64,000 nt of DNA from Bacteroidota bacterium (lineage in GTDB: Bacteria; Bacteroidota; Bacteroidia; Flavobacteriales; Schleiferiaceae). Of this stretch, positions 29,709 through 48,008 are shown one piece after another (the first letter of the stretch is position 1; every line of letters starts with the position of its first letter). The DNA lies in NCBI GenBank assembly GCA_024742495.1, contig JANSYJ010000012.1:10021-74020 (forward strand), in the 5' to 3' direction. The position numbers and the translations under genes are program-made. The notes beneath the pieces were generated by a model. The model was given only the letters and a program-made list of their open reading frames with translations, did not search any database and was not told the DNA's origin.

Positions 29709-29794
29709 TTGTCCCAATTTTTATAGAAATTCGGGACAAGCTTTAAGTCGGAAACAATTGAATTGTCCCAATTAACTACTATTTTTGGGACAAT
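29709..29794. promoter_or_regulatory. Putative AbiEi operator: two inverted repeats sharing the half-site TTGTCCC
   Basis: IR1 is ttgtccc (29709..29715) with gggacaa (29733..29739). IR2 is a perfect 10-bp pair, attgtcccaa (29762..29771) with ttgggacaat (29785..29794). IR2 covers a TAnnTTTG-type box (tatttttg, 29780..29787) and the abiEi ATG at 29793. Confidence 0.55.
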
Positions 29795-30374: not shown

Positions 30375-31354
30375 AGAATTGGCTTACACTACCAAAAGAG
30401 GAACAAGTAGAATTGTTTACGCAAATCGGTGTAAAAACCAATCTCCCACCACAAGCTGTTGAGAAAGATGCTTGGGTTAGCCTAATGCTTCGAATGATAT
30501 TTACTTCAGAATTAACAGATCATTTAATATTTAAAGGAGGAACTTCATTAAGCAAGGCATTCAACTTAATTCAACGATTTTCAGAAGATATTGACTTAGG
30601 TATAGATCGAAAACATTTAGGTTTTGATGGTGATTTATCGAAAGGACAAATTCGAAAATTGAGAAGAGCTTGCCACAAATTCGTTTCTCAGGATTTAACC
30701 GAACTACTCAAAAAACAACTTACCAGCTATGGTGTTGACGAGAGTTTATATAAAGTTGTAGTTGAAAACACACAAGTATCTGACCAAGACCCTGAAACTA
30801 TTAAAGTCAATTACCAATCTCTATTCGGAGAAATATCCTATCTCCCAAAAAGAGTTTTGATAGAAGTTAGTGCAAGGTCTTTAATTGAACCTAATCAGGA
30901 GGTTGCTATTAACTCACTTATTGATGAACACTATCCCGAAACAGATTTTATAGAGGGAGAATTTGTAGTAAGTGCAACCAATCCGCAAAAAACATTTTTA
31001 GAGAAGCTAATTCTGTTGCATGAAGAATTTGAGAAGCCAGTTGAAAAAATAAGGCATTTAAGAATGTCAAGGCATTTCTATGACATTGGGCAAATCCTAG
31101 ACTCTGAATTTGGGCAAGAAGCCCTAAAGAATAAAGAGCTTTTTGAAAGTATCATTAATCATAGAAAAGTGCTGACGCCAATGAAAACTACTGATTATGA
31201 AACGCTGACTTTACAAAGCCTAAATGTCATTCCACCAGATAAACATCTGAGCAACTATAAATCAGATTACAAAGAAATGCAAAGCAGCATGATACATGGT
31301 GAATCACTTGATTTTGATGAACTAATTGAAAAAATTACAAACGCATTGAAATAA
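30371..31354 (+). CDS. abiEii: AbiEii/AbiGii-family nucleotidyltransferase toxin
   Basis: Hallmark FKGGTSLSKAFNLIQRFSEDIDLG. ATG 30371 overlaps the abiEi stop (ATGA). Confidence 0.85.
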   Translation: MKNWLTLPKEEQVELFTQIGVKTNLPPQAVEKDAWVSLMLRMIFTSELTDHLIFKGGTSLSKAFNLIQRFSEDIDLGIDRKHLGFDGDLSKGQIRKLRRACHKFVSQDLTELLKKQLTSYGVDESLYKVVVENTQVSDQDPETIKVNYQSLFGEISYLPKRVLIEVSARSLIEPNQEVAINSLIDEHYPETDFIEGEFVVSATNPQKTFLEKLILLHEEFEKPVEKIRHLRMSRHFYDIGQILDSEFGQEALKNKELFESIINHRKVLTPMKTTDYETLTLQSLNVIPPDKHLSNYKSDYKEMQSSMIHGESLDFDELIEKITNALK

Positions 31355-33078: not shown

Positions 33079-33771
33079 CTATTTGCTCAAAACATTAGCA
33101 AGCTCATAAAGCACTAAAAACAAGCGGTGGCTCTTCGCTTGCAGGGGTCGAAATTCCGAATGGCGAAAATCCAATAGGCCCGGTTTCTTATCCTTGCTCT
33201 CGAGCTTACCAATATGAAATTGCCCCTCATCCCAGAGCAGCACCTTTTTATACAGGGCTACCGGCCAATCCTTTGGATCTTTTAGTTCGCGTACGATTAG
33301 TAATTCCAATGCCCTGCCTTCCTCATTTATCCAAGGCATACCAGCGTGGGGCTCAAAGCTGAGATAATCCGACTTAATACCCGGCAAGGGCAAATTTAAT
33401 TTCAGAAACTGATCGAGCTCCAGTCCATTAAAATAGTCGTTTCGTTTTTCAGAGCTTATGAACCAAACTGGAGCGAAGCTTTGCGGCATCTTGGTTGGCC
33501 TAAGCTGATTAGCCGCGTTTTTCACATAATCCTTCTTAAAGATGTCGAAATGAAAAAGGTCGTTTACCGAAAGCTCCTTATTGAGAAGGTCATCGGTAGA
33601 AATACCAAAATGCTTAGCAATTTCTATCAATGTTGCTATTTTTGGTTCCGCCCTTCCTTCTTCATAAGCGCCAATACTGGCTCTCTTTAATTCGAATAAA
33701 TCCGCGAAATCACTCTGATTCAAGTTTTTAACCGACCTTATCTTCTTTATATTCTTCCCAACGTATGACAT
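33079..33771 (-). CDS. XRE-family HTH transcriptional regulator with C-terminal domain
   Basis: N-terminal HTH NLNQSDFADLFELKRASIGAYEEGRAEPKIATLIEIAKHFGIS. It is divergent from the pspA-type operon. Confidence 0.8.
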   Translation of the reverse strand: MSYVGKNIKKIRSVKNLNQSDFADLFELKRASIGAYEEGRAEPKIATLIEIAKHFGISTDDLLNKELSVNDLFHFDIFKKDYVKNAANQLRPTKMPQSFAPVWFISSEKRNDYFNGLELDQFLKLNLPLPGIKSDYLSFEPHAGMPWINEEGRALELLIVRELKDPKDWPVALYKKVLLWDEGQFHIGKLESKDKKPGLLDFRHSEFRPLQAKSHRLFLVLYELANVLSK

Positions 33772-33962
33772 AGCACTGAAAATATTTTTGCTAATTTTTT
33801 TGGCAATACTAAAAATGTTAGTATATTAGCACGGTAAAACTAATAATAATAACATGAAAACGGTATTAAAGCTCCTAAATCGACTTTTTGCCCCGCCAAA
33901 AAATCCTAATTTGGTACCTATCTACGCTAAGCAAGAATCGATAAACCAAAACAGTAAAAAAC

Positions 33963-34358
33963 ATGGATAATTATTTCGAACGAGTAAAGAGCTTCCTCCT
34001 AGATTTGGATTATAATATCACCTACGAAAGCGCCGAAGAGGAGGTTTTTGTAGTGGAGAATGCCGACGCTGGCATGCATAATTTAGTTATTGCCGTTGCA
34101 GAGCCCATCATAATCATGGAGCAATATCTCTTCGAACTAAAAGACAACAAACCCGAGGTATTCCAAAAGTTATTGGTGAAAAACCGCGATATCGTACATG
34201 GGGCCTTCGCTTTAGATGAAGCAGGTTATAAAGTAGTGTTTCGCGACACCCTACAACTGGAAAACCTAGACCAAAATGAGATCGAGGGCTCATTAAACTC
34301 CCTTGAACTGCTCCTCAGTGAGTATTCCGACGAATTAATAGAATTTTCAAAAAACTAA
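33963..34358 (+). CDS. YjfI/YbjN-like small cytosolic protein
   Basis: 131 aa and acidic. N-terminal FERVKSFLLDLDYNI...E and C-terminal LEGSLNSLELLLSEY match the pattern of the YbjN/DUF2170 chaperone-like family. It sits directly upstream of a PspA homologue, as yjfI does for yjfJ in E. coli. Confidence 0.55.
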   Translation: MDNYFERVKSFLLDLDYNITYESAEEEVFVVENADAGMHNLVIAVAEPIIIMEQYLFELKDNKPEVFQKLLVKNRDIVHGAFALDEAGYKVVFRDTLQLENLDQNEIEGSLNSLELLLSEYSDELIEFSKN

Positions 34359-34361: not shown

Positions 34362-35084
34362 ATGAGTATTTTCAAACGCATCTTTAGCATCGGTAAAGCC
34401 GAAACAAATGCTGCCCTCAACAAATTAGAGGACCCCATTAAAATGACCGAACAAGGCATCCGCGATCTTAAAATGGATCTCGATAAAGCCTTACAGAGTT
34501 TGGCTGAAATCAAAGCCTTATCCATTCGTTCTCGCAACGACGCGAACACCTATCAGGCGAAAGCCAAAGATTACGAAAAGAAGGCAATTGCCCTTTTACA
34601 AAAAGTAGAGAAAGGTGAACTAGAAGGTGCCGAAGGCGATCGTTTGGCCGGTGAAGCTTTAAACCGCAAAAAAGAAAACGATAGCCTAATGTTACAAGCT
34701 AAAACCGACAAGGAGAAGTTTGATGGCAACATCGACAGCATGGAGAGTAAGATTAAGCGCTTACGCCAGCAAATTAGTCAGTACGAAAACGAGCTGAAAA
34801 CCTTAAAAGCTCGAGTAAAGGTGAGTACCGCTACCAAAAACATCAACAAGCAAATGGCGCAAATCGATTCATCGAGCACCATGAGTATGTTGGAACGTAT
34901 GAAAGACAAAGTAGCGGAAGAAGAAGCACTGGCCGAAAGCTATGGTGATATCGCCAACGAAAGTCGCAGTTTAGATGAGGAATTAGATCGTGCCTTAGAA
35001 GACAGCAACCCTGCAAGCGACGACTTAGCCGCCCTAAAAGCTAAGATGGGGCTGAACAAAGACGAAGAAAAAGACGAAAACTAA
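34362..35084 (+). CDS. PspA/IM30-family protein (YjfJ-like; ESCRT-III superfamily)
   Basis: 240 aa. N-terminal MSIFKRIFSIGKAETNAALNKLEDPIKMTEQGIRDLKMDL followed by a continuous coiled coil, typical of PspA/IM30. Confidence 0.85.
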   Translation: MSIFKRIFSIGKAETNAALNKLEDPIKMTEQGIRDLKMDLDKALQSLAEIKALSIRSRNDANTYQAKAKDYEKKAIALLQKVEKGELEGAEGDRLAGEALNRKKENDSLMLQAKTDKEKFDGNIDSMESKIKRLRQQISQYENELKTLKARVKVSTATKNINKQMAQIDSSSTMSMLERMKDKVAEEEALAESYGDIANESRSLDEELDRALEDSNPASDDLAALKAKMGLNKDEEKDEN

Positions 35085-35107: not shown

Positions 35108-35755
35108 ATGAGTGAATTCCTGAATTACATCTTTATTGGAGCTAATGCCGTACCCACGGCATTACTCCTCTTCGTAGTCTTATATTGGATTATTGTAATC
35201 TTTGGCGCCCTAGGTACCGACTTTTTAGATTTCGATATTGATATAGATGCCGATGGTTCTGCCGACCTGGATATGGATGGTGAGGGATTAGAAGTTTCTT
35301 GGTTTAATAATGTCTTGCAGTTCTTTAACCTTGGGAAGATCCCCTTTATGATCTGGCTATCTTTCGTTAGCCTACCGGCGTGGATCTTAAGCGTTAATAT
35401 TAACGGACTCCTCGGTTTTGAAAGCTTCATCCCCGGCTTTTTAGTATTTCTTGCCGCCCTATTTGTAAGCCTCTTCCTGGCGAAATTTTTAACCTGGCCC
35501 TTTGTCAAGTTTTTCGAAAAACTAGATGAGGACACCAAAGCCAAGGAAATTGTAGGCCGCGTAGGCACCGTTACCAGTAAGGCCAGCGGCAGTAGCCGTG
35601 GAATGGCGGAAATAAATTATGATGGCACCTTTTTAAGGATGATGATCCGATGCAGCGAAGGCCAAGAGGCCGAAAAAGGCAGCCAAGTGCTTTTCATCCG
35701 AAAGCTAAACGACCGCGGGGTGTATCTCGTGGAACCCTATACATCAATCGATTAA
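35108..35755 (+). CDS. YqiJ/NfeD-like membrane protein
   Basis: An N-terminal TM is followed by the acidic loop DFLDFDIDIDADGSADLDMDGEG, then TM helices, then a C-terminal OB-like segment (GRVGTVTS...GSQVLFIRK). It sits upstream of a flotillin, as in E. coli yqiJK. Confidence 0.6.
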   Translation: MSEFLNYIFIGANAVPTALLLFVVLYWIIVIFGALGTDFLDFDIDIDADGSADLDMDGEGLEVSWFNNVLQFFNLGKIPFMIWLSFVSLPAWILSVNINGLLGFESFIPGFLVFLAALFVSLFLAKFLTWPFVKFFEKLDEDTKAKEIVGRVGTVTSKASGSSRGMAEINYDGTFLRMMIRCSEGQEAEKGSQVLFIRKLNDRGVYLVEPYTSID

Positions 35756-35771: not shown

Positions 35772-37946
35772 ATGGAAATATTCCAAAACTCCTTGACCGT
35801 CTCCATTATAGTCGGTGTTGTGCTGATCTTCGGGATCATCGCCCTCTTCTCAAAATTTTACTACAAAGCTTCGCAAGGTCAAGCCTTAGTGCGCACCGGT
35901 GTTGGCGGTATAAAGGTTTCCTTTAATGGACTGATCGTAATTCCAGTTTTGCATAAAATTGAGATTATGGACATTTCGCTTAATACCATTACGATTGAGC
36001 GAAAAGGCAAGGATGGATTGGTATGTAAAGACAATTTAAGAGCCGACATTAGTGTTGCTTTTTACGTTCGTGTAAATGAAATGCAGCAGGATGTGAAACG
36101 GGTAGCCCAATCGGTAGGTTGTAGCCGAGCATCTTCTAAAGATGCCCTAAGATTACTCTTCGACGCTAAGTTCTCTGAAGCCCTTAAAACGGTAGGTAAG
36201 AAGTTTGAATTTGTAGATCTCTACAATCAAAGGGATGAGTTCCGTAAGGAGATAATCGACATTATTGGCACCGACCTCAACGGTTATATCTTGGACGATG
36301 CGGCCATCGACTTCCTTGAGCAAACCCCGCTTGATTCCTTAGACCCCAACAATATTTTGGATGCTGAGGGTATTAAAAAGATTACCGAGATCACCGCTCG
36401 TGAGGCCGTGAAATCGAACTACATACAAAGGGATAAAGAGAAAACCTTAAAACAACAGGATGTAGAAGCGCGTGAAGCCATTTTAGTCTTAGAAAGACAA
36501 TTAGCCGAATCGGAGGAAAAGCAGAAACGTGAAATCGCCAATGTACACGCTCGGGAACAAGCAGAAATTGATCGGGTAAATGAAGAAGAACGCCTGAAAG
36601 CGGAAAGCGCCCGAATTGCCACCGAAGAAGAACTACAAGTAGCGGAGGAAAATAAACTTCGTCAAGTAATTGTAGCCTCTAAAAACAAGGAGCGTACGGA
36701 GGCCATTGAAACCGAAAGGGTTGAAAAAGATCGCCAATTAGAAGTTACTGAGCGCGAGCGGATTGTTACCCTTACTCAAATTGAAAAAGAAAAGGCGATT
36801 GAAGAGGAGCGTAAGAATATTCAAGAAGTGATTCGCGAAAGAGTAGCGATTGAAAAAACCGTAGTTGACGAAGAGGAACGCATCAAAGATACCCGTGAAT
36901 TTGCCGCAGCCGAACGATTGAAGAAAGTGACCCTCACCGAGGCCGAACAAAGAGCCGAAGCCGCATTGGTTGAAGAAATTAAACGCGCCGAAGCCTCTAA
37001 GCAGTCAGCCGAATTCTTAGCGAAGAAATTAATTATTGATGCCGAAGCGGAACAGCAAAGTGCCACTCAAAAAGCGGAGGCTATTAAAACCTTAGCGGAA
37101 GCAGAAGCGGCCCGTGAAGCCGCCAAAGGAATGGCCGAAGCGCAAGTAATGGAAGCCAAAGCTGCCGCTCGTGAGAAGCAGGGTGAGGCGGAAGCAAGCG
37201 TACTGGAAGATCAAGCGATGGCCGAAGCGAAAGGCATTGAAGCGAAATCGAATGCTCAAGCTGAATCAGATTTAAGAATTGGTAAAGCAGCGGCTGATGT
37301 AAGCAAAGCCCAAGGTTTAGCGGAAGCGGAAGTAATTCGCGAAAAAGCAGAAGCCGAGAAATCCAAAGGATTGGCAGATGCCCAAGTACTACTTGAAAAA
37401 GCACAAGCAGAAGCAGAAGGCATTGACCGTAAAGCCAAAGCCATGAAAACCTTTAATGATGCCGGTAAGGAGCATGAAGAGTTTAAACTGCGCTTGGATA
37501 AAGACCTTAAAATTGAATTGGCTGGCATTAACATCCAAAAGGATATTGCTGATGCCCAGGCCGAAGTGATGTCGGAAGCCTTAAAGAGCGCTAACATCGA
37601 TATTGTCGGAGGCGATCAAGTTTTCTTCGATAAAATCATTGGCGCCATTACCCAAGGTAAGAGCATGGATCGCACCGTGAACAACAGCGAAATTTACAGT
37701 GAAATTAAAGGGCAACTGCTTGACGCAGATGGCAAGAGTTTAATTGATCAGGTGCGAAGCATATTTGCCGAATCGGGACTAAAAAGTGAAGATATCCGCA
37801 ATTTATCGGTAGCGGTATTCCTCAATCGCTTAATGCAACAAACCGATGATCCGCTGAAGAAAAGCAACCTGCAACAAATGTTGGAGCTCGCTCGTAAATC
37901 GGGAATCGGAAACAACTCAATTCAAGACTTAGGCATTATAAATTAA
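35772..37946 (+). CDS. Flotillin-family SPFH/Band-7 protein (YqiK-like)
   Basis: 724 aa. N-terminal TM, SPFH domain (QALVRTGVGG...ISLNTITIE...), about 350 aa of E/A/K-rich coiled coil, and a flotillin-type C-terminus. Confidence 0.85.
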   Translation: MEIFQNSLTVSIIVGVVLIFGIIALFSKFYYKASQGQALVRTGVGGIKVSFNGLIVIPVLHKIEIMDISLNTITIERKGKDGLVCKDNLRADISVAFYVRVNEMQQDVKRVAQSVGCSRASSKDALRLLFDAKFSEALKTVGKKFEFVDLYNQRDEFRKEIIDIIGTDLNGYILDDAAIDFLEQTPLDSLDPNNILDAEGIKKITEITAREAVKSNYIQRDKEKTLKQQDVEAREAILVLERQLAESEEKQKREIANVHAREQAEIDRVNEEERLKAESARIATEEELQVAEENKLRQVIVASKNKERTEAIETERVEKDRQLEVTERERIVTLTQIEKEKAIEEERKNIQEVIRERVAIEKTVVDEEERIKDTREFAAAERLKKVTLTEAEQRAEAALVEEIKRAEASKQSAEFLAKKLIIDAEAEQQSATQKAEAIKTLAEAEAAREAAKGMAEAQVMEAKAAAREKQGEAEASVLEDQAMAEAKGIEAKSNAQAESDLRIGKAAADVSKAQGLAEAEVIREKAEAEKSKGLADAQVLLEKAQAEAEGIDRKAKAMKTFNDAGKEHEEFKLRLDKDLKIELAGINIQKDIADAQAEVMSEALKSANIDIVGGDQVFFDKIIGAITQGKSMDRTVNNSEIYSEIKGQLLDADGKSLIDQVRSIFAESGLKSEDIRNLSVAVFLNRLMQQTDDPLKKSNLQQMLELARKSGIGNNSIQDLGIIN

Positions 37947-37952: not shown

Positions 37953-37976
37953 GGGTCGGTTTAAAGGTACCGACCC
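37953..37976 (+). promoter_or_regulatory. Intercistronic 8-bp GC-rich hairpin between the flotillin and AAA+ genes (no T-tract)
   Basis: gggtcggt (37953..37960) pairs with accgaccc (37969..37976) across an 8-nt loop. It lies in the largest gap (45 nt) of the operon. Confidence 0.3.
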
Positions 37977-37991: not shown

Positions 37992-40900
37992 ATGGCCGAA
38001 AAAAGCAATATATCAGATTCAAACTCTTTGGAGACGGGCGCCTATACTATTATTCGCGAACGCCTTCAAAATAATGGCAAGGATCTTCAAGCGCGATTAA
38101 AGCAGCTAAATGATGAGCGTCGTCTCGTATTTGGGGCCACCGATACGCGGCTAATCGCCAATGAGCGCATAAGCACCGAACACAATTGTTTGGCACGCGA
38201 TATAGTACCGGTGGGTAATGACTTTTTTTGGTTTGGCTATAATGTTCAAATCGGCCTTAAAGCCGAAACCCATATTTCCGATGTGTTTAGCATTTACCGC
38301 TACGATCGAGAAAACCATCGCTTTCAAAGCACTGAAAGTCCCATTTTTGAGGATCCACAGTTTCAACTCGACTTTCAAAACCTCTACCAATATTACCGCG
38401 AAACGCGATTTAGCAAATTCGCCTTAATCGGTCCCTACCTATTTATGGTGTTTCAGGTGGGTAAGAAGAGAGAGGACATAAAAACCTTTAAATGGGCCCT
38501 GAAAGATGGCGCCTATCACTATGTTGATAATCGCAGCGACCATGAATTTCGCTTTCCCGAACAACATCAATTTAAATGGACTAAGGTAAACCGCGATATG
38601 CACCGCAAAGGACTGCATCCGCATATCTCCATATCGGATCGGCTTTTTGTAGAAACCATCGGTGGCGATCTCACTTTAAAAGTTGAGGACAATACCAATA
38701 GTGGCAAGGGCATTTACAGTGAAGCGGTAGATAATGCGGACCAGACTTTGGATGATGCCGATATCTCTTTTGCCGAAGTAGGAAATATCATCTTACTTAA
38801 GATTCAGCCTTATCTGGAGGATGATTATCGCTACATCATTTTTAATGAGAAAATTCAAGAAGCCAAGCGGGTTGATGCCATTAAAGATGCCTGTGTACTG
38901 CTGCCGGAGGACCAAGGTTTAATTTTCGCCAAAGGCTATTACATCCAAAGTGGTGAAGTGAAGCTTTTTGACAATGAGCTGCAGGGTATGCAGTTTGAAA
39001 AGCGCATTAATTCACCTAATGGTGAGGATGTACTCTATGTCTTCTATCAGCCCGAAAGCGGCACCTATGCCTTAATGCGCTACAATCTCATTGAGCAAGA
39101 AGTAAGCACGCCCATCATTTGCAGTGGCTACAGTCTCTTTGAAGATGGGGAAATGATTTACTTCCGAGCGGAGGAAGAGCAAACAAAGCATCATCTTATA
39201 CAGATTTGGCAAACCCCCTTTTACTCCCCCAATCGCCAAAACGAAGCTAGTAATGACTCCTACCTAGCAAAATTGGGAAATAAGGAAATTGTGCGGGCCA
39301 TGTCGGAATCGAGGGAACTCCTAAAACTAGTTTATAAAGAAGATAACTACCAAGGCCTATACAACGACCTAACTAAGAAAAGCTCCGATATCCTTGACAG
39401 CTACCATTGGTTAGGCTCCGAAGAAGCTTATCAGCTGGAAGCTCCCTTATTGCAAATTAGAGACACGGCTAAAAGTGCCATTGACGAGTACGAAAAGGTT
39501 GTTCAACTTAAGAAAGATAGCAGCCGTTTATACGAAGCCTTTGAGGCTGATTGCCAAAAGAAGTTAAGAGCTCTAAAAGCGGGATTAGGAAATCATATTG
39601 ATGCCTATGTAAAACGCATGGCGGAAATTCGCAGCAGTCGCGGTGAACTCCTCGGTCTTAAGGATTTACCCTATGTAAATACCGAAGGCCTTAATGAGCT
39701 GGAAGAAAAGTTGGCAGAAGCTTCTGAGCATTTAGCTGCTGAAACGGCAAATTTCTTGGTAAAGGAAAAAGCCCTTAATCCTTATCGTGATAAACTCGAT
39801 CAACTGGTAAAGAATTCCGAGGCTCTTCAAAAATCAATTGATGCCAAGAAGCTAGAAGAAGAAAGCCTTCAACTGTCTCAAGAATTGGAGATGCTTATCG
39901 AAACGGTGAGTAATTTACAAATTGAGGACGCCACCCAATCTACCGAGATCATTGACCGGATTTCGGATTTATACGCCGCCTTTAATCAGGCCAAAGCTGG
40001 AATTAAACGCAGTAGAAAAGAATTGGTACTGCGTGAAAGCGCCAGTGAGTTTAAGGCTCAATTGCGTTTGGCCGATCAGAGCTTGAGCAATTTTATTGAA
40101 TTGGCCGATGAACCGGAAAAATGCGATAGCTATCTCAATAAAATGATGATACAGCTGGAGGAGCTGGAAAGTCGTTTTTCCGAATCGGAGGAATTCCTCG
40201 ATCAAATTTCAAATTTAAGAGACGAGGTTTACAACACCTTCGAAACCAAAAAAATACAGCTTAAGGAAGCCCGTAATCGTCGCGCCTTAAAGCTCAGCGA
40301 ATCAGGGAAACGCATTTTGGAAGGCATTCAGCGTCGCCTACAGAATATGGCTAGCAGCGCGGAAATACAGTCCTACTATGCCTCTGACTTTATGGTCTTA
40401 AAATTAAGAGACCAGGCCAAGGCATTAGTGGAATTGGGCGACTCCGTGAAAGCGGATGAATTGGAAAGTCAATTGAAATCGACTTATGAAGATGCCCTTC
40501 GCCAATTAAAAGATCGGCAAGAGCTGTATGCAGATGGCGATAAACTAATCCAACTTGGAAAGCATCGCTTTAGCGTAAACCATCAGGAAATAGATCTTTC
40601 CTTGGTTCAAAGAGAAAATGGAATTTTTTTACACATAAACGGTACTGGCTTTTTTGAAGCGATTGAAAGTGATGATTTAGAAGCTTGTAGACCGGTGTGG
40701 GAACAACATCTGCGCAGTGAAAATGAGCGGGTATATAGAGCCGAGTTTTTGGCCTATTCCATTTTTAAAGCCGCTAAAGTTGGTGAGGAAAGCTGGAATT
40801 TAAAGGAGCTTCATCAACTCGCGCATCAGGAACTTTTACCCCAAGTTCAAAAAGAAATGTCCAGCCGTTTTCAGGAAGCTTATGTAAAAGGGGTGCACGA

Positions 40901-42920
40901 TGAAGATGCGAGCAAAATCTTAGAAGGACTTCTAAAACTACACTTTGAACTTGGACTCTTACGTCATCCTGCCAAAGCAAGGCTATGGGCCCTTTATACC
41001 TGGGACTTTGTTTTAAGCAAGGAGCAAAAGCAAGCGATTAAAGAAGAATTTAATCATGTAAAAAGCATTTTACAATTCTTCCCAAACAGCACTAGTTTTA
41101 AAAGTAGCAAGGAGGCCTTAGCCGAAATTTTGCAATCCGATTCAGCCACAGCCCAGCTCTTAAAGGCTGATGCCAATCAGTTGGATGCCGCGGTAGATTT
41201 TTGCTTTGACTGGCTGAGTCAATCCGAGGCCCTGGCTTTTTCTCAGGAAGCACGAACTTTAGTGGATGCCTTTCAATCAAAGCTGCGAAAAAGCCAAGCC
41301 CTAAAACGTTTTGAGGCCGATTGCAAGCAACAGGCAGATGAACATTGGAGTCAAGCTATAAAACGCATTCACACCTGGCTTGCCGCCTTTACGAGTTCTA
41401 GTGCGCTTAACATTAATGAGGATCACTTCTTGGAGGCTGCCTACTTACTGGGCCTTTCCAAATTAGATGCCGAGCAAGGTCATGTGCATCATACCCAGCT
41501 GGAAATCGACAATATGCGCGGCGAACATCCAAATATTGTGGAAGGTAGCTTAAGCATCGATTACCGCGAATTAGAGGAACGCCTCCAATTCTTTAGTGCG
41601 GAAACAATTCCCTTATACGAGCGCTTTCAAAATATCAAGAAAGAGCTATTAAGAGCGGAACGTCGCAAAATGGGTCTATCCGAATTTAAACCTCGGATTA
41701 TGAGTTCATTCGTGCGTAATGAATTACTGGATGAAGTTTACCTTCCCATGATTGGCGATAACCTTGCAAAGCAGATTGGAGCGGCGGGTAAGGATAAGCG
41801 TACCGACTTAATGGGCATGCTCCTGCTCATCTCTCCTCCCGGTTATGGTAAAACCACCTTGATGGAGTATATCGCCGCCAGGCTGGGATTAGTGTTCATG
41901 AAAATTAACGGTCCTGCTCTTGGTCACGATGTAAAAAGCGTTGATCCCGAAGGGGCGCCAAATGCCGGAGCTAGAGAAGAACTCTATAAGCTGAATTTAG
42001 CCTTTGAGATGGGCGACAATGTGATGATCTATCTCGATGATATTCAACATTGTAATCCCGAGTTTCTTCAAAAATTCATTAGCCTTTGTGATGCCCAACG
42101 AAAAATTGAAGGGGTGTATAAAGGTGAGGCAAAAACCTACGACTTCCGCGGAAAGAAAGTGGCGGTGATTATGGCAGGTAACCCTTATACCGAAAGCGGA
42201 GATAAGTTTCAGATTCCGGATATGCTTGCCAACCGTGCCGATATTTACAATTTAGGAGATATTATTGGCGGCAAAGCAGAGGCCTTTGAATTAAGCTATA
42301 TTGAAAATAGCCTCAGCTCCAACCGCAGCTTGGCTCGTTTAGCGGATAAACCACGGGCAGATTTAAAATCCTTTCTAAGGGCGGCGGTAGATAATCAGCA
42401 GGACCTAGACCTCAAAGACAATTACAGCGCCACCGAAAAAGAAGAGCTATTAAAAGTCCTCCGATTAGCCTATGAGGTGCGCCGTATCGTATTAATGGTT
42501 AACCAGCGCTATATTCATTCTGCCGGTCAGGCCGATGCCTTTAGAAGTGAACCGCCTTTTAAGTTACAAGGTTCCTACCGCGATATGAATAAGCTCTGCG
42601 AAAAGCTAAGTGCCATGATGAATGAATCGGAGCTGGAGCAGATTTTACTATCCCATTATGAAAACGAATCGCAAACTCTAACTCAAGGAGCGGAGTTCAA
42701 TTTCCTTCGCCTCAAGCAGCTTTTGGAGAAAAGCACGCCCGAAGAGGAAGAGCGATTGGCGGAAATATTAAAAGCCTATCAAAAACAGCAGCAAGCCAAG
42801 GGTTATGGCTCTAATCAGGTGGCGCCCATTGTAGAGCGCTTAGAGCAGATGGGCTTCGGACTGCAGGAGCTGGTGCGCATATTTGAAAACGAAAACAAAC
42901 TAAACACTAAAAAAGAATGA
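37992..42920 (+). CDS. 1642-aa protein: N-terminal beta-rich region, long coiled-coil, single C-terminal AAA+ ATPase module
   Basis: Uninterrupted ORF. Walker A LLISPPGYGKTT (K codon 41850..41852). Walker B VMIYLDDIQH (DD at 42036..42041). Sensor-1-like VIMAGNPYT and Arg motif LANRADIYNLGD. Confidence 0.8.
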   Translation: MAEKSNISDSNSLETGAYTIIRERLQNNGKDLQARLKQLNDERRLVFGATDTRLIANERISTEHNCLARDIVPVGNDFFWFGYNVQIGLKAETHISDVFSIYRYDRENHRFQSTESPIFEDPQFQLDFQNLYQYYRETRFSKFALIGPYLFMVFQVGKKREDIKTFKWALKDGAYHYVDNRSDHEFRFPEQHQFKWTKVNRDMHRKGLHPHISISDRLFVETIGGDLTLKVEDNTNSGKGIYSEAVDNADQTLDDADISFAEVGNIILLKIQPYLEDDYRYIIFNEKIQEAKRVDAIKDACVLLPEDQGLIFAKGYYIQSGEVKLFDNELQGMQFEKRINSPNGEDVLYVFYQPESGTYALMRYNLIEQEVSTPIICSGYSLFEDGEMIYFRAEEEQTKHHLIQIWQTPFYSPNRQNEASNDSYLAKLGNKEIVRAMSESRELLKLVYKEDNYQGLYNDLTKKSSDILDSYHWLGSEEAYQLEAPLLQIRDTAKSAIDEYEKVVQLKKDSSRLYEAFEADCQKKLRALKAGLGNHIDAYVKRMAEIRSSRGELLGLKDLPYVNTEGLNELEEKLAEASEHLAAETANFLVKEKALNPYRDKLDQLVKNSEALQKSIDAKKLEEESLQLSQELEMLIETVSNLQIEDATQSTEIIDRISDLYAAFNQAKAGIKRSRKELVLRESASEFKAQLRLADQSLSNFIELADEPEKCDSYLNKMMIQLEELESRFSESEEFLDQISNLRDEVYNTFETKKIQLKEARNRRALKLSESGKRILEGIQRRLQNMASSAEIQSYYASDFMVLKLRDQAKALVELGDSVKADELESQLKSTYEDALRQLKDRQELYADGDKLIQLGKHRFSVNHQEIDLSLVQRENGIFLHINGTGFFEAIESDDLEACRPVWEQHLRSENERVYRAEFLAYSIFKAAKVGEESWNLKELHQLAHQELLPQVQKEMSSRFQEAYVKGVHDEDASKILEGLLKLHFELGLLRHPAKARLWALYTWDFVLSKEQKQAIKEEFNHVKSILQFFPNSTSFKSSKEALAEILQSDSATAQLLKADANQLDAAVDFCFDWLSQSEALAFSQEARTLVDAFQSKLRKSQALKRFEADCKQQADEHWSQAIKRIHTWLAAFTSSSALNINEDHFLEAAYLLGLSKLDAEQGHVHHTQLEIDNMRGEHPNIVEGSLSIDYRELEERLQFFSAETIPLYERFQNIKKELLRAERRKMGLSEFKPRIMSSFVRNELLDEVYLPMIGDNLAKQIGAAGKDKRTDLMGMLLLISPPGYGKTTLMEYIAARLGLVFMKINGPALGHDVKSVDPEGAPNAGAREELYKLNLAFEMGDNVMIYLDDIQHCNPEFLQKFISLCDAQRKIEGVYKGEAKTYDFRGKKVAVIMAGNPYTESGDKFQIPDMLANRADIYNLGDIIGGKAEAFELSYIENSLSSNRSLARLADKPRADLKSFLRAAVDNQQDLDLKDNYSATEKEELLKVLRLAYEVRRIVLMVNQRYIHSAGQADAFRSEPPFKLQGSYRDMNKLCEKLSAMMNESELEQILLSHYENESQTLTQGAEFNFLRLKQLLEKSTPEEEERLAEILKAYQKQQQAKGYGSNQVAPIVERLEQMGFGLQELVRIFENENKLNTKKE

Positions 42921-43468
42921 GCTTATTCGGTAATTTATTTGGCTCCAAAAAGGAGGAAGAACCCAATCCATTTGGGCGTACGCCGGCCGACTTAGACCAG
43001 GGTTTTATTTTTGAATACGACCTTCAAAGCTGGGAAGTTATGGCCGTGTATGAATACGACTGGGGCGATGAAAACTTCAGCAAGGAGTTTAAGGTGAGTG
43101 ATGGCACAAACACCTATTTCCTTTCGGTGGAAGACGACGATCAATTGGAAATGACCTGGAGTCAGAAAATCTCCTTGAACGCCATAGAAGGGCGAATTGC
43201 CAGTCAAATTGAAGAAAATGAACGACCGCCAGAGAGCCTCGTTTATGAAGGAAAAACTTTTTATTTGGAAGAAGAAAGTGCTGGCTATTTTCATGAGAAA
43301 GGCAGCGGCGAAGAGGCCTGGACGGAATTTATGGTTTGGGACTATTTCGATAAAAAGGAAGAAACTTCCCTGAGCATTGAACAATGGGGACCACGATCTT
43401 TTGAAGCATCCTATGGTAAGGTGCTAAAGAATCACGAAATTTCGGACATCCTACCAAGGCAACAATAA
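42917..43468 (+). CDS. DUF4178-like protein
   Basis: 183 aa. The pattern FEYDLQSWEVMAVYEYDWGDE...YFLSVEDDD is repeated in WTEFMVWDYFD...LSIEQW. ATGA overlap with the AAA+ gene. Confidence 0.5.
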   Translation: MSLFGNLFGSKKEEEPNPFGRTPADLDQGFIFEYDLQSWEVMAVYEYDWGDENFSKEFKVSDGTNTYFLSVEDDDQLEMTWSQKISLNAIEGRIASQIEENERPPESLVYEGKTFYLEEESAGYFHEKGSGEEAWTEFMVWDYFDKKEETSLSIEQWGPRSFEASYGKVLKNHEISDILPRQQ

Positions 43469-43469: not shown

Positions 43470-44237
43470 ATGAGACAAGTACACAAATTCCTTAGCATTT
43501 TAACTCTGGTCCTTGTGGCCCAAGCTTGCGGACCTGGCAGTCCAAGCTTTGTTAAAAATCCCCTTGATGACATCGTGAAAGAACTAAGTGAAGTTCCAAA
43601 CTTCAGTATCATTCTTTACGATATGAATTTTGATGAGGCCACGGAGCAGTATCAACATCAATATCGGATTCTAAAAGAGCCCCAGGGCGCGGATACCATA
43701 GAAACGGAAACCACCGACTGGAAGCAAGTAAGCCCCGAATATTTCAATGAGCACATTGAAAATATGGGCATGACCATCGTTTCAAAATCTAATGGCACGG
43801 TCGACAAAAAGGTAAGTCCTCCGGGTTATAATCAATATGTAGGCAATGAAAAATACGGACAATGGAGCCAAAACTCAGATGGCACCAGCTTTTGGGAATT
43901 CTATGGCAAATATGCCTTTCTCCGCAGTATGCTTGGTTTTGGTTACTCTCCTATTTACTATGGGGGCTGGAATGATTACCGACGGAATTATTACCCCTAC
44001 GGTAGAACCTATTACGGCCAAGGCTCAAACGGAAGAAACAGGTATGGAACCAATAGCACCCATAATCAGAGCCGAAGTAAAGCCTCAACCTGGAGTGGTA
44101 AAAACCAAGACTTTAAAAACAAAGTCCGCAGTAGAGCCCAAAGAAGCTCCAGTAGAACTAGCAAAAGAAGTCGTTCCGGATCGCGCTACCGCAGTGGATC
44201 CAGCAGTCGCGGACGTGGATTTGGCGGTGGTAAATAA
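43470..44237 (+). CDS. Lipoprotein with Tyr/Gly-rich middle and Arg/Ser/Gly-rich tail (YjfM-like)
   Basis: Lipobox LVAQACGPG. The C-terminus ...SRTSKRSRSGSRYRSGSSSRGRGFGGGK resembles the tail of E. coli YjfM (from my memory of that sequence). Confidence 0.5.
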   Translation: MRQVHKFLSILTLVLVAQACGPGSPSFVKNPLDDIVKELSEVPNFSIILYDMNFDEATEQYQHQYRILKEPQGADTIETETTDWKQVSPEYFNEHIENMGMTIVSKSNGTVDKKVSPPGYNQYVGNEKYGQWSQNSDGTSFWEFYGKYAFLRSMLGFGYSPIYYGGWNDYRRNYYPYGRTYYGQGSNGRNRYGTNSTHNQSRSKASTWSGKNQDFKNKVRSRAQRSSSRTSKRSRSGSRYRSGSSSRGRGFGGGK

Positions 44238-44254: not shown

Positions 44255-45136
44255 ATGACTACAGAGATCCTCAGCAACGAATGGGCCAACGACCTTCTCC
44301 TCTTCAGTATTTATTTGGTAAGTTCCCTACTCCTACTCTACCTTGGTAAATGGGCTTTTAAAATTACCAAAGCGAGCATTAATCCTGCTCACGAAATGGT
44401 GGAGAAAGATAATCTCGCCTTTAGCTTCGCCTATACCGGATATTTTGCCGGCTTACTATTAGCCGTTGGTTCGGCGGTTTATGGCGATTCCCTAGGTTTA
44501 TTAACCGACTTGGAAGACATGGCCATTTTCGGTCTGCTGGCCATCGTGCTACTCAATCTTTCTTCTTTAATTATTGATAAAATCACCCTCCGTAAATTTT
44601 CGATTTGGAAAGAAATTACTGAAGACCGCAATGCGGGAATGGGTATTATTGAAGGGGCGAATTATGTGGCCAGTGGTTTAATAATATTTGGAGCAATTAC
44701 CGGCGAAAGCGGTAATCTGCTTTTTGGTATTTATACCGCCGTAGCTTATTGGGCAATCGGACAGGTGCTTATCATTTTAGCCACTGCCATTTACAATCGC
44801 TTTATGCCCTACTCTCTTCACGATGAGATTGAAAAGGATAATAATGCTGCGGGCCTTGCCTTTGCAGGTTTAATTATTGCGGTGGCCAATTTAATTCGCA
44901 ATGGACTAATGGGCGACTTTGCATCTTGGGATGAAACCCTTATTGAAGTAGCTTATGAAACCGGAATCGGCCTAATTATTTTACCGCTAATTCGCACCTT
45001 GGTCGATCGAATACTATTGCCTGGTCGCAAATTAAGTGATGAAATTGCGGGCCAAGAAAAGCCCAATGTAGGGGCAGGATTAATAGAGGCCTTTGGCTAT
45101 ATCGGCGGTTCAGTCTTAATTATTTGGTGTATCTAA
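44255..45136 (+). CDS. Polytopic membrane protein with four DUF350 (YjfL-like) repeats
   Basis: About 8 TM helices. Four repeats begin EKDNLAFSFAYTGYFAG, EDRNAGMGIIEGANYVASG, EKDNNAAGLAFAGLIIAVA and EKPNVGAGLIEAFGYIGG. Confidence 0.6.
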   Translation: MTTEILSNEWANDLLLFSIYLVSSLLLLYLGKWAFKITKASINPAHEMVEKDNLAFSFAYTGYFAGLLLAVGSAVYGDSLGLLTDLEDMAIFGLLAIVLLNLSSLIIDKITLRKFSIWKEITEDRNAGMGIIEGANYVASGLIIFGAITGESGNLLFGIYTAVAYWAIGQVLIILATAIYNRFMPYSLHDEIEKDNNAAGLAFAGLIIAVANLIRNGLMGDFASWDETLIEVAYETGIGLIILPLIRTLVDRILLPGRKLSDEIAGQEKPNVGAGLIEAFGYIGGSVLIIWCI

Positions 45137-45137: not shown

Positions 45138-46685
45138 TTGGCATTAAGGCGATCCCCTTTTTTAAAGCTTGCCCTTTTTGCAACCGGCTTATCGGGCATC
45201 GTAGCGGAGTATATCCTCTCTACCTTGGCCACTTACTTTATTGGCGATTCGGCAGTACAATGGTCGCTAATAGTTTCGGTGATGCTCTTTTCCATGGGCC
45301 TAGGCTCGCGCATTAGCAAATACCTCGAAGGGAATCTGCTCATTAAATTCATCGGGGTAGAATTTGCCCTGAGCATTTTAGTGTCTTTCTCCTCCTTGGT
45401 GGCCTATACCGCCGCCGGACTCACCGAATATGTAGCCTTAATCATTTACGGAATGAGCATTTTAATCGGCCTGCTCATTGGGCTAGAAATTCCCTTGGTA
45501 ATTCGGCTAAACGAAGAGTTTGAGAGCTTGAAAGTGAATGTCGCCTCGGTGATGGAAAAAGACTATTTAGGCTCCTTAGTCGGTGGTTTATTTTTTGCTT
45601 TTGTTGGTCTCCCCCTAATTGGATTAACCTACACCCCATTTATACTCGGCTTTATTAATTTGATGGTGGCCCTTGGCCTATTCCTTAGTGTGCGCGGCGA
45701 CCTTGCCCTTAAATTTAAAAGACGCATTGTATTTGCCTCTTCCCTTATTGTGGTCATTATGTTGGGGGGAATACTAAAGGCCGAACCGATAATCCTCTTT
45801 GGTGAGCAAGCGCGCTATAAAGATCGAGTGGTATTCTCCGCTGAAAGCAAGTATCAGAAAATTGTGATCACCCAATGGAAGGACCATTATTGGCTTTACC
45901 TTAATGGAAATCAACAACTCAGCTCCCTCGACGAGCAAAAATACCACGAGGCCTTAGTTCATCCTGCCGCTCATTTAGCGCATCAAATTAAGGATGTACT
46001 GGTTTTAGGCGGTGGCGACGGATGCGCGGCCCGAGAGCTTTTAAAATACCCGGAATTACAAAGTATTACTATAGTTGATTTAGACTCCATGATGACCGGT
46101 TTAGCGCAGCGTCATCCGATTTTAACCGATTTAAATCACAATGCTTTAAATCATAAAAAGGTGAAGATTGTCAATTCCGATGCCTTCAACTATATGGAGC
46201 GGGAAAAGCAGCTTTACGATTTAATCATTGTAGATCTTCCTGATCCGCGTTCCGTTGAACTCAACCGTATGTACACTAGTGAGTTTTATCGTTTATGTCA
46301 TTTAAAGCTCCGTCCGCATGGCGCTTTAATCACCCAAGCTGGCAGTCCCTATTTTGCTACTAAAGCTTTTCAATGCATTTCCAAAACCATGAGCTCGGCT
46401 GGTTTTGAGTCCTTGGCGCTGCACAATCACGTGCTTACCTTAGGCGAGTGGGGCTGGGTGCTGGGGCAGAAATCCGAATGGACCCAAGGACAATTAAAGG
46501 AAAGGGCACGCCAGCTTCAGTTTAAGGACATTGAAACCAATTGGTTAAATAATGAAGCCATGTTGCTTATGAGCTCCTTTGGGAAGAATATTTATTTTGA
46601 GGTGAAGGACAGTATAAAGGTGAATCACATCCAAGACCCGGTACTGTATCGCTATTATTTAAAAGGCAACTGGGATCTCTATTAA
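45138..46685 (+). CDS. Membrane-anchored spermidine-synthase-like polyamine aminopropyltransferase
   Basis: TTG start 1 nt after the previous stop. An N-terminal region of about 210 aa is polytopic. The SpeE-type domain carries VLVLGGGDGCAAREL, DLIIVDLPDP and ITQAGSPYF. Confidence 0.75.
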   Translation: MALRRSPFLKLALFATGLSGIVAEYILSTLATYFIGDSAVQWSLIVSVMLFSMGLGSRISKYLEGNLLIKFIGVEFALSILVSFSSLVAYTAAGLTEYVALIIYGMSILIGLLIGLEIPLVIRLNEEFESLKVNVASVMEKDYLGSLVGGLFFAFVGLPLIGLTYTPFILGFINLMVALGLFLSVRGDLALKFKRRIVFASSLIVVIMLGGILKAEPIILFGEQARYKDRVVFSAESKYQKIVITQWKDHYWLYLNGNQQLSSLDEQKYHEALVHPAAHLAHQIKDVLVLGGGDGCAARELLKYPELQSITIVDLDSMMTGLAQRHPILTDLNHNALNHKKVKIVNSDAFNYMEREKQLYDLIIVDLPDPRSVELNRMYTSEFYRLCHLKLRPHGALITQAGSPYFATKAFQCISKTMSSAGFESLALHNHVLTLGEWGWVLGQKSEWTQGQLKERARQLQFKDIETNWLNNEAMLLMSSFGKNIYFEVKDSIKVNHIQDPVLYRYYLKGNWDLY

Positions 46686-46686: not shown

Positions 46687-47007
46687 ATGGAAGAAAGTAA
46701 GATCTACAACTACCGAATCTGGCTGGCCAAAAGCGAAACAGTCCCTCTTAAAAACAAGATTGAAGAGATGCTTAAAGCGGCGGGCTACGGCATAGTTGGT
46801 TTTAGCGAACATCACTTTCAACCGCAGGGCTATACCTGCACATGGCTGCTCAGTGAAAGTCACTGCGCCTTGCACACCTTTCCCGAGGAAGGTCGCTCCT
46901 ACATTGAGTTAAGTGGCTGCTCGGAAGCCAAGAATAGTCACTTTGTGAAGGCCGCCAATGCTGCATGGAAAGATTATATTCGCAAGGCGCTACAATCCGT
47001 TTGTTAA
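46687..47007 (+). CDS. Pyruvoyl-dependent S-adenosylmethionine decarboxylase proenzyme (SpeH/SpeD-like, short form)
   Basis: Self-cleavage/active-site motif LLSESHCALHTFPEEG, with Glu-Ser at 46855..46860. 106 aa. It starts 1 nt after the speE-like stop. Confidence 0.7.
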   Translation: MEESKIYNYRIWLAKSETVPLKNKIEEMLKAAGYGIVGFSEHHFQPQGYTCTWLLSESHCALHTFPEEGRSYIELSGCSEAKNSHFVKAANAAWKDYIRKALQSVC

Positions 47008-48008
47008 TGAAAAAGCATTTTTTAGTCCTATTTCTTTTTTGCTTCACGATCAGCAATGCCCAAGAATCCAAGTACGCCATTATTATTCACGGCGGGGCCG
47101 GAAATGGTTTAGTTCCAGGAAACTATAATGAAGTGCAAACTGCGGCTTTTCATCACGCTCTTAATGCCGCTCTCGCACGAGGAGACTCTGCCCTGGCCGC
47201 TGGGGCGGATGCACTTGATGTTGTGAGTTTGGTGATACAGGTTTTGGAGAACGATTCCCTTTTTAATGCCGGCAAGGGTGCGGTACTTACCTATGAAGCT
47301 AAGGCCTCCTTAGACGCCAGTATTATGGATGGTGCCAGTTTGGAAGCTGGCGCCGTAGCGGGTGTTTCTTGTATTAAAAACCCCATTACCGCAGCCTTAA
47401 GTGTACTGCGTCATTCGCCACATGTTATTCTTAGCGGAGCTGGCGCAGATCGCTATGCCCAGGAGAAAGGTAGTATATGTGTGGATCCTTCCTACTTTAT
47501 AATCCCTAGTAAGCTTAAGACAATAAAACGCATCCGCAAGGAGCAAGAAGCCCTGGATAGCGCTCAAAATCATAAAATGGGAACGGTTGGTTGCGTGGTG
47601 CGAGACCGCGAGGGGAACATTGCCGCTGGAACTTCTACCGGAGGTATGATGGCCAAGCGTTACGGTAGAATTGGCGATTCACCAATTGTGGGCGCTGGAA
47701 CCTATGCCAATAATTCTTCCGCGGGGATAAGCTGCACCGGGCATGGCGAATACTTTATTCGCAATGTAATCGCCTTTCAGGTCGCTAATCGGGTAGACCT
47801 AATTGAAGAATCGGGACAAGAGGCCGCCGATTATATGATTCACGATGTACTGAGCAGTCAAAAAGCCTTTGGCGGCTTAATAGGCATTGACCGCAATGGG
47901 GAGCTTTTTTACAGCTTTAATACCACTGGTATGTTAAGAGGTTTTAAGCGCGAAGGTGAAAAAGCCCAAACCTATATTTTCAGCCTCGAAATTGAGGGAG
48001 ACAATTGA
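47007..48008 (+). CDS. Isoaspartyl peptidase / L-asparaginase (Ntn hydrolase), secreted
   Basis: ATG 47007 overlaps the previous stop (TAATG). Signal MKKHFLVLFLFCFTISNAQ, IIHGGAG, and autoprocessing site HKMGTVGCV. Confidence 0.8.
   Translation: MKKHFLVLFLFCFTISNAQESKYAIIIHGGAGNGLVPGNYNEVQTAAFHHALNAALARGDSALAAGADALDVVSLVIQVLENDSLFNAGKGAVLTYEAKASLDASIMDGASLEAGAVAGVSCIKNPITAALSVLRHSPHVILSGAGADRYAQEKGSICVDPSYFIIPSKLKTIKRIRKEQEALDSAQNHKMGTVGCVVRDREGNIAAGTSTGGMMAKRYGRIGDSPIVGAGTYANNSSAGISCTGHGEYFIRNVIAFQVANRVDLIEESGQEAADYMIHDVLSSQKAFGGLIGIDRNGELFYSFNTTGMLRGFKREGEKAQTYIFSLEIEGDN

Follow-up and report, generated by a model that had tools for sequence, protein, structure and literature searches.

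The 64,000-nucleotide (nt) stretch of Bacteroidota DNA analysed here (family Schleiferiaceae, contig JANSYJ010000012.1, positions 10,021 to 74,020; hereafter the window) carries an open reading frame (ORF) at 37992..42920 on the plus strand, with an ATG start, that encodes a soluble DUF3686-DUF7902-AAA+ protein of 1642 amino acids (aa). Its gene is the third member of a three-gene NfeD-flotillin-AAA+ module, and this module is the core unit of the surrounding operon. Judged from sequence comparisons, the chance is about even (roughly 0.5) that the AAA+ protein acts in the cytoplasm as a nucleotide-gated factor that assembles or remodels the flotillin/NfeD scaffold. The triad itself is best explained as an ancient, self-contained three-gene membrane module. 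An identical protein (P0001, from a Bacteroidota metagenome-assembled genome) is on record under the NCBI name 'DNA repair ATPase'. A previous reading of the same DNA, made without database searches (the sequence-only reading), had taken the protein for a candidate ATPase partner of the ESCRT-III-like protein PspA; the ORF and the four motifs that it quoted were all recovered at the same nucleotides.

Gene linkage of the AAA+ protein

The family to which the protein belongs comprises more than 5600 clusters at 90% identity. At 50% clustering, 708 representatives carry its N-domain, always at the N-terminus and in proteins of about 1550-2040 aa, and members are present in at least 588 species genomes from Bacteroidota, Planctomycetota, Verrucomicrobiota, Desulfobacterota, Clostridia, Actinomycetota, Myxococcota and Gammaproteobacteria. 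The best 80 genome loci of these at least 588 species genomes were compared by ORF calling, iterated hidden Markov model (HMM) searches seeded from the window proteins, and all-against-all clustering, and counts were made on the 63 loci whose upstream sequence exceeds 3.2 kb. Four distant members (about 30-35% identity; Ilumatobacter, Streptomyces, Pseudoalteromonas and Polyangiales) bring the total to 67 loci in eight phylum-level groups. Membership of the window protein in this family, and its gene linkage, are near certain.

In 60 of the 63 loci and in all four distant ones (64/67) the gene immediately upstream of the AAA+ gene encodes a flotillin and has the same orientation, and the flotillin neighbourhood expected of homologues by the sequence-only reading is thereby borne out. 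Upstream of flotillin a YqiJ-like gene was found in 57 of the 63 loci and again in all four distant ones (61/67). In each of the four distant loci the AAA+ gene comes after a YqiJ-like and then a flotillin gene, PspA is missing from the locus, and the flotillins were identified by the SPFH HMM at E values below 1e-90. In ten loci from outside Bacteroidota the genes flanking the triad were, according to Pfam scans, unrelated housekeeping genes only.

PspA, on the other hand, is linked to the AAA+ gene in one phylum. Among the 31 Bacteroidota loci with enough flanking sequence, PspA was found beside the AAA+ gene (upstream, with CesT) in 24 and CesT in 22, whereas both were absent from the 32 such loci of Planctomycetota, Verrucomicrobiota, Desulfobacterota and Clostridia (PspA 0, CesT 0); with the four distant loci included, PspA adjoins the AAA+ gene in 0/36 loci outside Bacteroidota. 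PspA, the headline partner of the sequence-only reading, is thus a lineage-specific secondary association. A minus-strand homologue (about 250 aa) of the window's helix-turn-helix (HTH) regulator stands upstream of CesT in 22/31 Bacteroidota loci, and the regulator travels with the PspA-containing form of the operon. The sequence-only reading had also leaned on translational coupling to the downstream gene. The overlap is real (ATGA at 42917-42920, where the stop codon of the AAA+ gene overlaps the start codon of a DUF4178 gene), but the linkage to the downstream DUF4178, YjfL and polyamine genes is limited to the window and the loci L085, L004, L027 and L029. L085, the closest complete relative, is 75% identical and has the same 11-gene layout as the window, while L086 (54% identical) has the HTH regulator, a phospholipase D, CesT, PspA, YqiJ-like, flotillin and AAA+ genes and is without polyamine genes. 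Since flotillin and the YqiJ-like gene are near-constant, the PspA-CesT pair is confined to Bacteroidota, and the polyamine genes are confined to close relatives, the core unit is the three-gene NfeD-flotillin-AAA+ module.

A previous comparative study (Ravi et al. 2024, mSystems, PMC11237479; bioRxiv 2020) described an operon in which a CesT/Tir-PspA pair is joined to three genes, including one for a YqiJ/YuaF protein with three transmembrane (TM) segments, and a 'beta-propeller + coiled-coil + AAA-ATPase' protein encoded in such CesT/Tir-PspA-YqiJ/YuaF-flotillin operons. In the same study, abbreviated operons without PspA were found to be more widespread, a second operon type consisting of DUF4178, a 'novel lipoprotein', DUF350 and a TM-spermidine-synthase was reported, and ESCRT-like, ATP-dependent membrane dynamics or remodelling was proposed. 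The window shares the domain architecture, the gene order and the divergent HTH regulator with the operon protein of that study, every feature compared being found, and the Dokdonia donghaensis locus in their Table S3 has the window's gene order, including a divergent 'cHTH+Protease' gene. The ESCRT-like idea of the sequence-only reading is reasonable and already published; it is not new, because Ravi et al. describe both the operon and the ESCRT-like remodelling. The window is one more member of a family known from comparative genomics, in a lineage that fuses the two described operon types: in contrast to the operons of Ravi et al., the window and L085 combine both types with an S-adenosylmethionine decarboxylase-like (AdoMetDC) gene in one co-directional, partly translationally coupled string. 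Searches of the literature on flotillin, NfeD, AAA+ and SPFH returned only Ravi et al. for the AAA+ protein and no experimental study of the family, and searches on DUF3686, PF12458 and 'DNA repair ATPase' in combination with flotillin returned nothing. What is added here are the D-D Walker B motif, the non-aromatic pore loop, the pre-sensor-1 hairpin of the model, the globular middle domain, and the counts that speak for flotillin, and not PspA, as the constant partner.

According to the model of the sequence-only reading, the protein would be a Vps4-like ATPase that disassembles or remodels PspA, and flotillin would merely help to localise it. This is compatible with the presence of PspA and a CesT-like chaperone in the same co-directional operon, both in the window and in 24/31 Bacteroidota loci, and with the ESCRT-like roles suggested for PspA-associated AAA+ proteins by Ravi et al. 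(PMC11237479); in addition, an SPFH protein, YdjI of B. subtilis, can recruit PspA to the membrane (cited in PMC10936438 and PMC9239133). We nevertheless consider the model unlikely. The AAA+ module is almost invariant, yet no PspA gene adjoins it in 36/36 loci outside Bacteroidota or in 7/31 within, and the CesT-PspA pair also joins other operon types that have no AAA+ gene (PMC11237479). Moreover, the protein has no MIT domain, its nearest folds are not Vps4 or the classical clade, and it combines the D-D Walker B motif with a pore loop that has no aromatic residue. Taken together, the comparative data favour flotillin as the primary partner.

In about a dozen loci (L005, L009, L016, L018, L019, L034, L039 and others) small lineage-specific genes stand between flotillin and the AAA+ gene, among them genes for predicted lipoproteins or TM proteins and, in L009 and L034, IS200-like transposases. 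Since the linkage persists despite these intervening genes, the flotillin/AAA+ junction tolerates insertions.

Domain architecture and ATPase site

Pfam DUF3686 (PF12458, described as 'ATPase involved in DNA repair') matches aa 31-472 of the protein with an E value of 3e-189 and full profile coverage, DUF7902 (PF25472) matches aa 593-677 (E 1e-25), and AAA and AAA_5 match aa 1277-1400 weakly (E about 1e-6). Two AlphaFold2 (AF2) models were built on 77-sequence alignments, one of aa 1-870 with a mean predicted local distance difference test score (pLDDT) of 85.0, and one of aa 840-1642 with a mean of 86.8. In the first model a helix (aa 12-47) precedes a predicted beta-propeller of ~29 strands in about seven blades (aa 53-407; 38148..39212, +), which corresponds to DUF3686. 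Foldseek matched this N-terminal part with the seven-bladed propellers of DCAF1 (WD40), IFT-A, the clathrin terminal domain and prolyl-oligopeptidase (E 6e-6 to 1e-3), and the beta-rich N-terminus of the sequence-only reading is confirmed by both Pfam and the model. The propeller is followed by a helical arm of 12 helices, each 15-58 residues long and separated by short breaks (aa 424-845; 39261..40526, +), which contains DUF7902. The sequence-only reading had expected a coiled coil of about 750 residues here; long helices do extend over ~420 residues (aa ~424-845), but the next ~375 residues (852-1227) are folded domains.

This middle region (aa 852-1227; 40545..41672, +) is modelled as a five-strand beta domain (aa 852-890), an all-alpha domain (aa 916-1161) and a beta element, from which a long linker helix leads to aa 1227; neither a Pfam match nor a PDB sequence match was found for it. 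The AAA+ alpha/beta core (aa 1244-1423; 41721..42260, +) has a modelled pre-sensor-1 beta-hairpin (aa 1371-1384; nt 42102-42143), and is followed by the lid and a C-terminal helical extension (aa 1424-1642; 42261..42917, +). No hydrophobic or TM segment was found in the AAA+ protein, which is therefore soluble.

The whole protein contains a single P-loop (SPPGYGKT) and a single Walker-B-like motif (MIYLDD). The motifs of the nucleotide site are Walker A LLISPPGYGKTT (aa 1278-1289; nt 41823-41858), a D-D Walker B VMIYLDDIQH (aa 1344-1353; nt 42021-42050), sensor 1 VIMAGNPYT with N1397 (aa 1392-1400; nt 42165-42191), LANRADIYNLGD with the arginine-finger candidate R1415 (aa 1412-1423; nt 42225-42260), and the sensor-2 candidate QGSYR (aa 1526-1530; nt 42567-42581). 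An alignment of 26 full-length family members with 29-45% identity revealed complete invariance of S-P-P-G-Y-G-K-T in Walker A, of D1349-D1350-I-Q-H in Walker B, where the catalytic position is Asp and not Glu, of G-N1397-P in sensor 1, of N-R1415 at the arginine-finger position and of Q-G-S-Y-R1530 at the sensor-2 position. Because they are invariant at this level of identity, the AAA+ motifs are not chance matches, and the invariance of SPPGYGKT, DDIQH, GNPxT, NR and QGSYR indicates that the nucleotide site is functional and strongly selected.

The pore loop 1 region, KINGPALGHxVTSLDP between strand 2 and helix 2, is without an aromatic residue family-wide. Together, the D-D Walker B motif and the non-aromatic loop argue against a canonical translocase. 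Given D1350 at the catalytic position and the lack of an aromatic residue in pore loop 1, one would not readily expect a Vps4-style threading motor, and, going by these two features, a switch-like or slow ATPase seems more likely than a threader of the Vps4/ClpB type. DnaA, a slow and regulated ATPase, has a similar IDDIQF motif, a parallel that serves as a lead only and not as a test.

The sequence-only reading had described the AAA+ module as MoxR/dynein-like, a class that the data do not establish. AAA_5 scores 28.8 bits (cut-off 22), but since Pfam AAA (PF00004) scores equally with 28.2 bits the match is non-discriminating. Nearest among the solved folds matched by Foldseek to the C-terminal part are RuvB, ClpB/ClpA-D2 and MCM (E about 1e-5 to 3e-4), and NorQ and CbbQ appear only at ranks 32 and 40. 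The likeness to the MoxR/AAA_5 ATPases (CbbQ, NorQ, RavA) consists in the AAA_5 score above cut-off and in the presence of NorQ and CbbQ among the fold matches; the string 'AGNPYTE...IPDMLANR' also resembles the 'ATQNP...LDRF' pattern of MoxR. Unlike MoxR proteins, however, the modelled AAA+ module appears to have no helix-2 insert, since in the AF2 model (pLDDT above 90 in this part) strand 2 is joined to helix 2 by a 14-residue loop that forms no hairpin, and neither the window operon nor the Pfam-annotated neighbourhoods L081-L086 were found to encode a VWA partner. The modelled hairpin, the missing helix-2 insert and the fold matches thus point to a place for the AAA+ module in the pre-sensor-1-hairpin group, near HslU/Clp/Lon/RuvB-type ATPases. 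In the model MoxR/dynein is not clearly indicated, and the classical Vps4 clade is not indicated. When the C-terminal module or a profile of 26 family sequences was searched against PDB, only the P-loop region was matched, by VCP, Rix7 and RuvB.

An alternative in which the protein is a DNA-repair ATPase, similar to SbcC/Rad50/RecN or to RuvB, is suggested by its name in NCBI and UniRef ('DNA repair ATPase'), by the Pfam description of DUF3686, and by weak best sequence and fold matches to RuvB. It is extremely improbable. The RuvB matches cover the generic P-loop region only and reach 20-23 bits against cut-offs near 290. An ABC signature (LSGGQ) was sought across the whole 1642-aa protein and not found, nor is there an N-terminal P-loop or a second nucleotide-binding half. 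The protein thus differs from SMC, Rad50, SbcC and RecN in having no split ABC head flanking a coiled coil, and the sequence-only reading was right to describe an AAA+ protein with one module, as opposed to an ABC ATPase of the SMC/Rad50 type. NCBIfam, which holds no informative model for the AAA+ protein, and PDB gave no SMC, Rad50 or RecN matches for aa 1-1200, and the PDB sequence search with these residues gave no match that classifies the protein; according to NCBIfam, PDB and a motif scan, the N-terminal and central regions match no DNA-repair family. The genomic context consistently consists of membrane proteins and never of repair genes. Many named members, amounting to thousands of database entries, carry the misannotation 'DNA repair ATPase', which no feature found here supports and which probably spread from spurious coiled-coil similarity.

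The architecture also brings to mind a structural, coat-like protein, i.e. a nucleotide-switched scaffold that would polymerise on flotillin domains or tether them, with the AAA+ module serving for oligomerisation or as an ATP switch. A propeller joined to a long helical region resembles the architecture of clathrin, IFT-A and nucleoporins, and in Foldseek the protein was aligned over ~900-1100 columns with IFT-A subunits, a nucleoporin and clathrin heavy chain. With about 1240 residues the part outside the ATPase is large, which fits such a protein, as do the D-D Walker B motif without an aromatic pore loop and the abundance of the family in Planctomycetota and Verrucomicrobiota. However, the TM-scores of the long alignments are 0.08-0.18, which leaves the propeller as the only convincing match, the helices do not form a solenoid but long coiled-coil-like segments, and the invariant sensor 1, arginine finger and sensor 2 indicate that hydrolysis matters. 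A coat-like protein therefore seems to us unlikely.

Proposed function and relation to known systems

For the AAA+ protein as a nucleotide-gated factor acting on flotillin we propose the following course of events. Flotillin, with its N-terminal TM anchor and paired with the NfeD-like protein, would build an oligomeric SPFH scaffold at the cytoplasmic face of the membrane, and the AAA+ protein would dock on this scaffold through its beta-propeller and helical arm. By binding ATP, and probably by hydrolysing it slowly or in a regulated manner, it would control assembly of the scaffold, its turnover or the loading of clients. The protein would thus be a nucleotide-gated assembly or remodelling factor, and not a processive threading motor of the Vps4/ClpB type. 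In Bacteroidota the CesT-PspA pair and the divergent HTH regulator have been added upstream of the triad, and in the lineage of the window a polyamine module (DUF4178, lipoprotein, YjfL, TM-spermidine synthase and AdoMetDC) downstream of it; here the ATPase is probably part of a larger envelope-stress operon, with PspA as a co-operating or secondary client. The sequences show the domain architecture, how the motifs are conserved, which genes are linked and how the family is distributed, whereas the physical interaction with flotillin, the oligomeric state, the ATPase kinetics and the direction of action are inferred.

Several considerations weigh against this proposal. Gene linkage does not reveal which protein, if any, is the substrate. 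The 80 loci are the best-scoring relatives (43-56% identity), to which contexts of four more distant members were added, and the PspA counts outside Bacteroidota refer to the neighbourhood of the AAA+ gene. With regard to the ATPase, hydrolysis could still be possible with an Asp at the catalytic position, or its part could be taken by a different acidic residue. The pre-sensor-1 hairpin and the missing helix-2 insert are features of a predicted model only, and the folds of RuvB and ClpB-D2 are matched in a generic way (E about 1e-5; TM-score, normalised by target, 0.35-0.6).

SPFH scaffolds that work with AAA+ machines have a precedent in HflK/C-FtsH (PMC12048511, PMC13220708). Flotillins are also known to assemble into closed cages at the membrane (PMC11260169). 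It is a tentative possibility, short of what we would predict, that the triad is a dedicated non-proteolytic machine in which the AAA+ protein assembles, opens or dismantles flotillin cages, and that the Bacteroidota form couples this activity to PspA and polyamine synthesis. If so, the AAA+ protein would be the first regulator of a flotillin scaffold, across all domains of life, that is known to be driven by nucleotides; our literature searches brought up no ATPase with a demonstrated action on flotillin. Flotillins and PspA are much-studied membrane organisers of which the control of assembly and disassembly is poorly understood, and SPFH proteins (flotillin, HflK/C) form closed cages that would have to be opened or turned over. 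A widespread, strongly conserved AAA+ gene beside flotillin offers a concrete and genetically tractable candidate, and cultured hosts exist in Flavobacterium, Chryseobacterium, Bacteroides, Streptomyces and Pseudoalteromonas. The family is accordingly a good experimental target for the control of flotillin scaffolds, albeit the window shows no new kind of system.

Among known systems, HflK/C-FtsH, prohibitin/m-AAA and SLP2/YME1L resemble the triad in that an SPFH scaffold is paired with an AAA+ protein at the membrane, here by gene linkage. The pairing is conserved across phyla, and the likeness to HflK/C-FtsH (PMC12048511, PMC13220708) is one of functional class and not of homology. In contrast to these systems, the AAA+ protein has neither a protease domain nor a TM segment and carries instead a propeller and ~800 residues of helical and other domains, and its putative partner is a flotillin-type SPFH protein together with an NfeD-like protein. 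YqiJK of E. coli and YuaF-FloT of B. subtilis share with the triad its first two genes, those for a short NfeD/YqiJ-like TM protein and, after it, flotillin. A third, AAA+ gene is present in only some NfeD-flotillin operons, as reported by Ravi et al. (PMC11237479), and the window flotillin belongs to a distinct, longer subfamily (about 650-725 aa) with a poor full-length Band_7 score.

The likeness to Vps4/CdvC and ESCRT-III of archaea and eukaryotes is that an AAA+ gene lies near PspA, a member of the ESCRT-III superfamily, and this holds in Bacteroidota only. By analogy, ATP-dependent control of a membrane-bound polymer, as in Vps4/CdvC, is plausible. However, where Vps4 has its N-terminal MIT domain, by which the MIM motifs of ESCRT-III are bound, the AAA+ protein has a helix and a beta-propeller, and no MIT match was found with Pfam; its Walker B motif is YLDD and not hhhhDE, and its pore loop 1 is without an aromatic residue. 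The modelled pre-sensor-1 hairpin has no counterpart in the classical clade (Vps4, katanin, spastin), and the only classical-clade sequence matches, VCP and Rix7, cover the P-loop alone. The relation to Vps4/ESCRT-III is that of a functional analogue at most, and not of a homologous system.

The operon in the window and its surroundings

The window operon agrees with the sequence-only reading in being co-directional, in containing both PspA and flotillin, and in having a YjfL-like gene (DUF350) downstream, accompanied by DUF4178 and spermidine-synthase genes. It contains the gene for a CesT/Tir-like chaperone of 131 aa (33963..34358, +; Pfam CesT_Tir_1, E 1.6e-53), followed by that for PspA/IM30 (ESCRT-III-like) of 240 aa (34362..35084, +; Pfam PspA_IM30, E 9.8e-41). 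Next comes the YqiJ/YuaF (short NfeD)-like protein of 215 aa (35108..35755, +), for which weak Pfam matches to YqiJ_N and NfeD and three hydrophobic segments were obtained, consistent with three TM segments and a C-terminal OB-like domain. The flotillin-like protein of 724 aa (35772..37946, +; Band_7) has one N-terminal TM segment, an SPFH/Band_7 domain, a long E/A-rich coiled coil and a conserved C-terminal region. Downstream of the AAA+ gene lie those for a DUF4178 protein of 183 aa (42917..43468, +; Pfam), translationally coupled via the ATGA, a predicted lipoprotein of 255 aa with a signal peptide ending in VAQAC (43470..44237, +), which corresponds to the 'novel lipoprotein' in the second operon type of Ravi et al., and a DUF350/YjfL-family multi-TM protein of 293 aa (44255..45136, +; Pfam and TM prediction). 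The next two genes encode a spermidine-synthase-like polyamine aminopropyltransferase with a fused multi-TM domain, of 515 aa in all (45138..46685, +; NCBIfam PRK03612, E 2e-165; Pfam Spermine_synth) and the AdoMetDC-like protein of 106 aa (46687..47007, +).

In the window flotillin Band_7 was detected with an E value of 1.8e-13 when aa 1-230 were searched alone, but not at full length (hmmscan), and the SPFH/Band_7 domain was likewise missed in the flotillins of L082-L086, both at full length and in precomputed Pfam tables. The domain is probably hidden by a composition-bias correction that the long E/A-rich coiled coil sets off. A PDB sequence search with the window flotillin gave no match, and in its conservation profile no conserved extreme C-terminal tail stands out as a docking motif. 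The 45-nt spacer between the flotillin stop codon and the start of the AAA+ gene contains a perfect 8-bp GC-rich hairpin, GGGTCGGT-N8-ACCGACCC (37953..37976), which has no T-run on the plus (coding) strand and may be an element of mRNA processing, stability or attenuation. A promoter and terminator scan of the window, which does not cover Bacteroidota promoters, gave counts at or below the shuffled expectation and was not used.

Divergent from the operon is an XRE-type HTH regulator of 230 aa (33079..33771, -; Pfam HTH_19/HTH_3). The corresponding gene is labelled 'cHTH+Protease' by Ravi et al. (Table S3, PMC11237479) after its C-terminal part, and this label suggests a LexA/CI-like self-cleaving repressor of the operon. 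A 38-aa ORF (33854..33970, +) lies between the regulator and CesT, the start codon of which (33963) it overlaps with its end as ATGGATAA. A 66%-identical ORF was called at L085:5921-6037, and none was detectable elsewhere among the loci; the 38-aa ORF may encode a leader peptide or have arisen by chance.

An overlapping pair of an AbiEi-like antitoxin (DUF6088/AbiEi_3_N) and an AbiEii nucleotidyltransferase toxin is encoded at 29763..31354 (+), ~2.6 kb upstream of the HTH regulator. This pair would be in line with an anti-phage or conflict system that acts by perturbing the membrane, as would the CBASS-like genes (SAVED, Prok-JAB, E1/E2-like ThiF) at L085:22313-24968, ~7 kb downstream of the operon there, and a weak PADLOC match of the AAA+ protein to mad8 (E 6e-5). 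A role in defence is nonetheless very unlikely: the mad8 match is limited to the generic AAA+ core, the flanking genes vary between genomes and are mostly housekeeping genes, no effector nuclease or toxin domain was detected with Pfam, and the triad keeps its gene order in eight phylum-level groups. PADLOC gave only this generic match and coiled-coil noise for PspA, and the defence reading was rejected.

An Asparaginase_2 gene (isoaspartyl peptidase family) stands beside the operon in the window (46965..48008), in L085 (19064-20065) and in L086 (2747-3670), albeit on different sides, and in L086 it adjoins genes for a cyanophycin synthetase and a Peptidase_S51 (cyanophycinase-family) protein. 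Further downstream, the region 56005..63176 (+) encodes a 1094-aa protein with TPR and MORN repeats, then a DUF3857/transglutaminase-like protein, and then a 662-aa protein for which Pfam gave no match; these genes are unrelated to the AAA+ protein and its operon.

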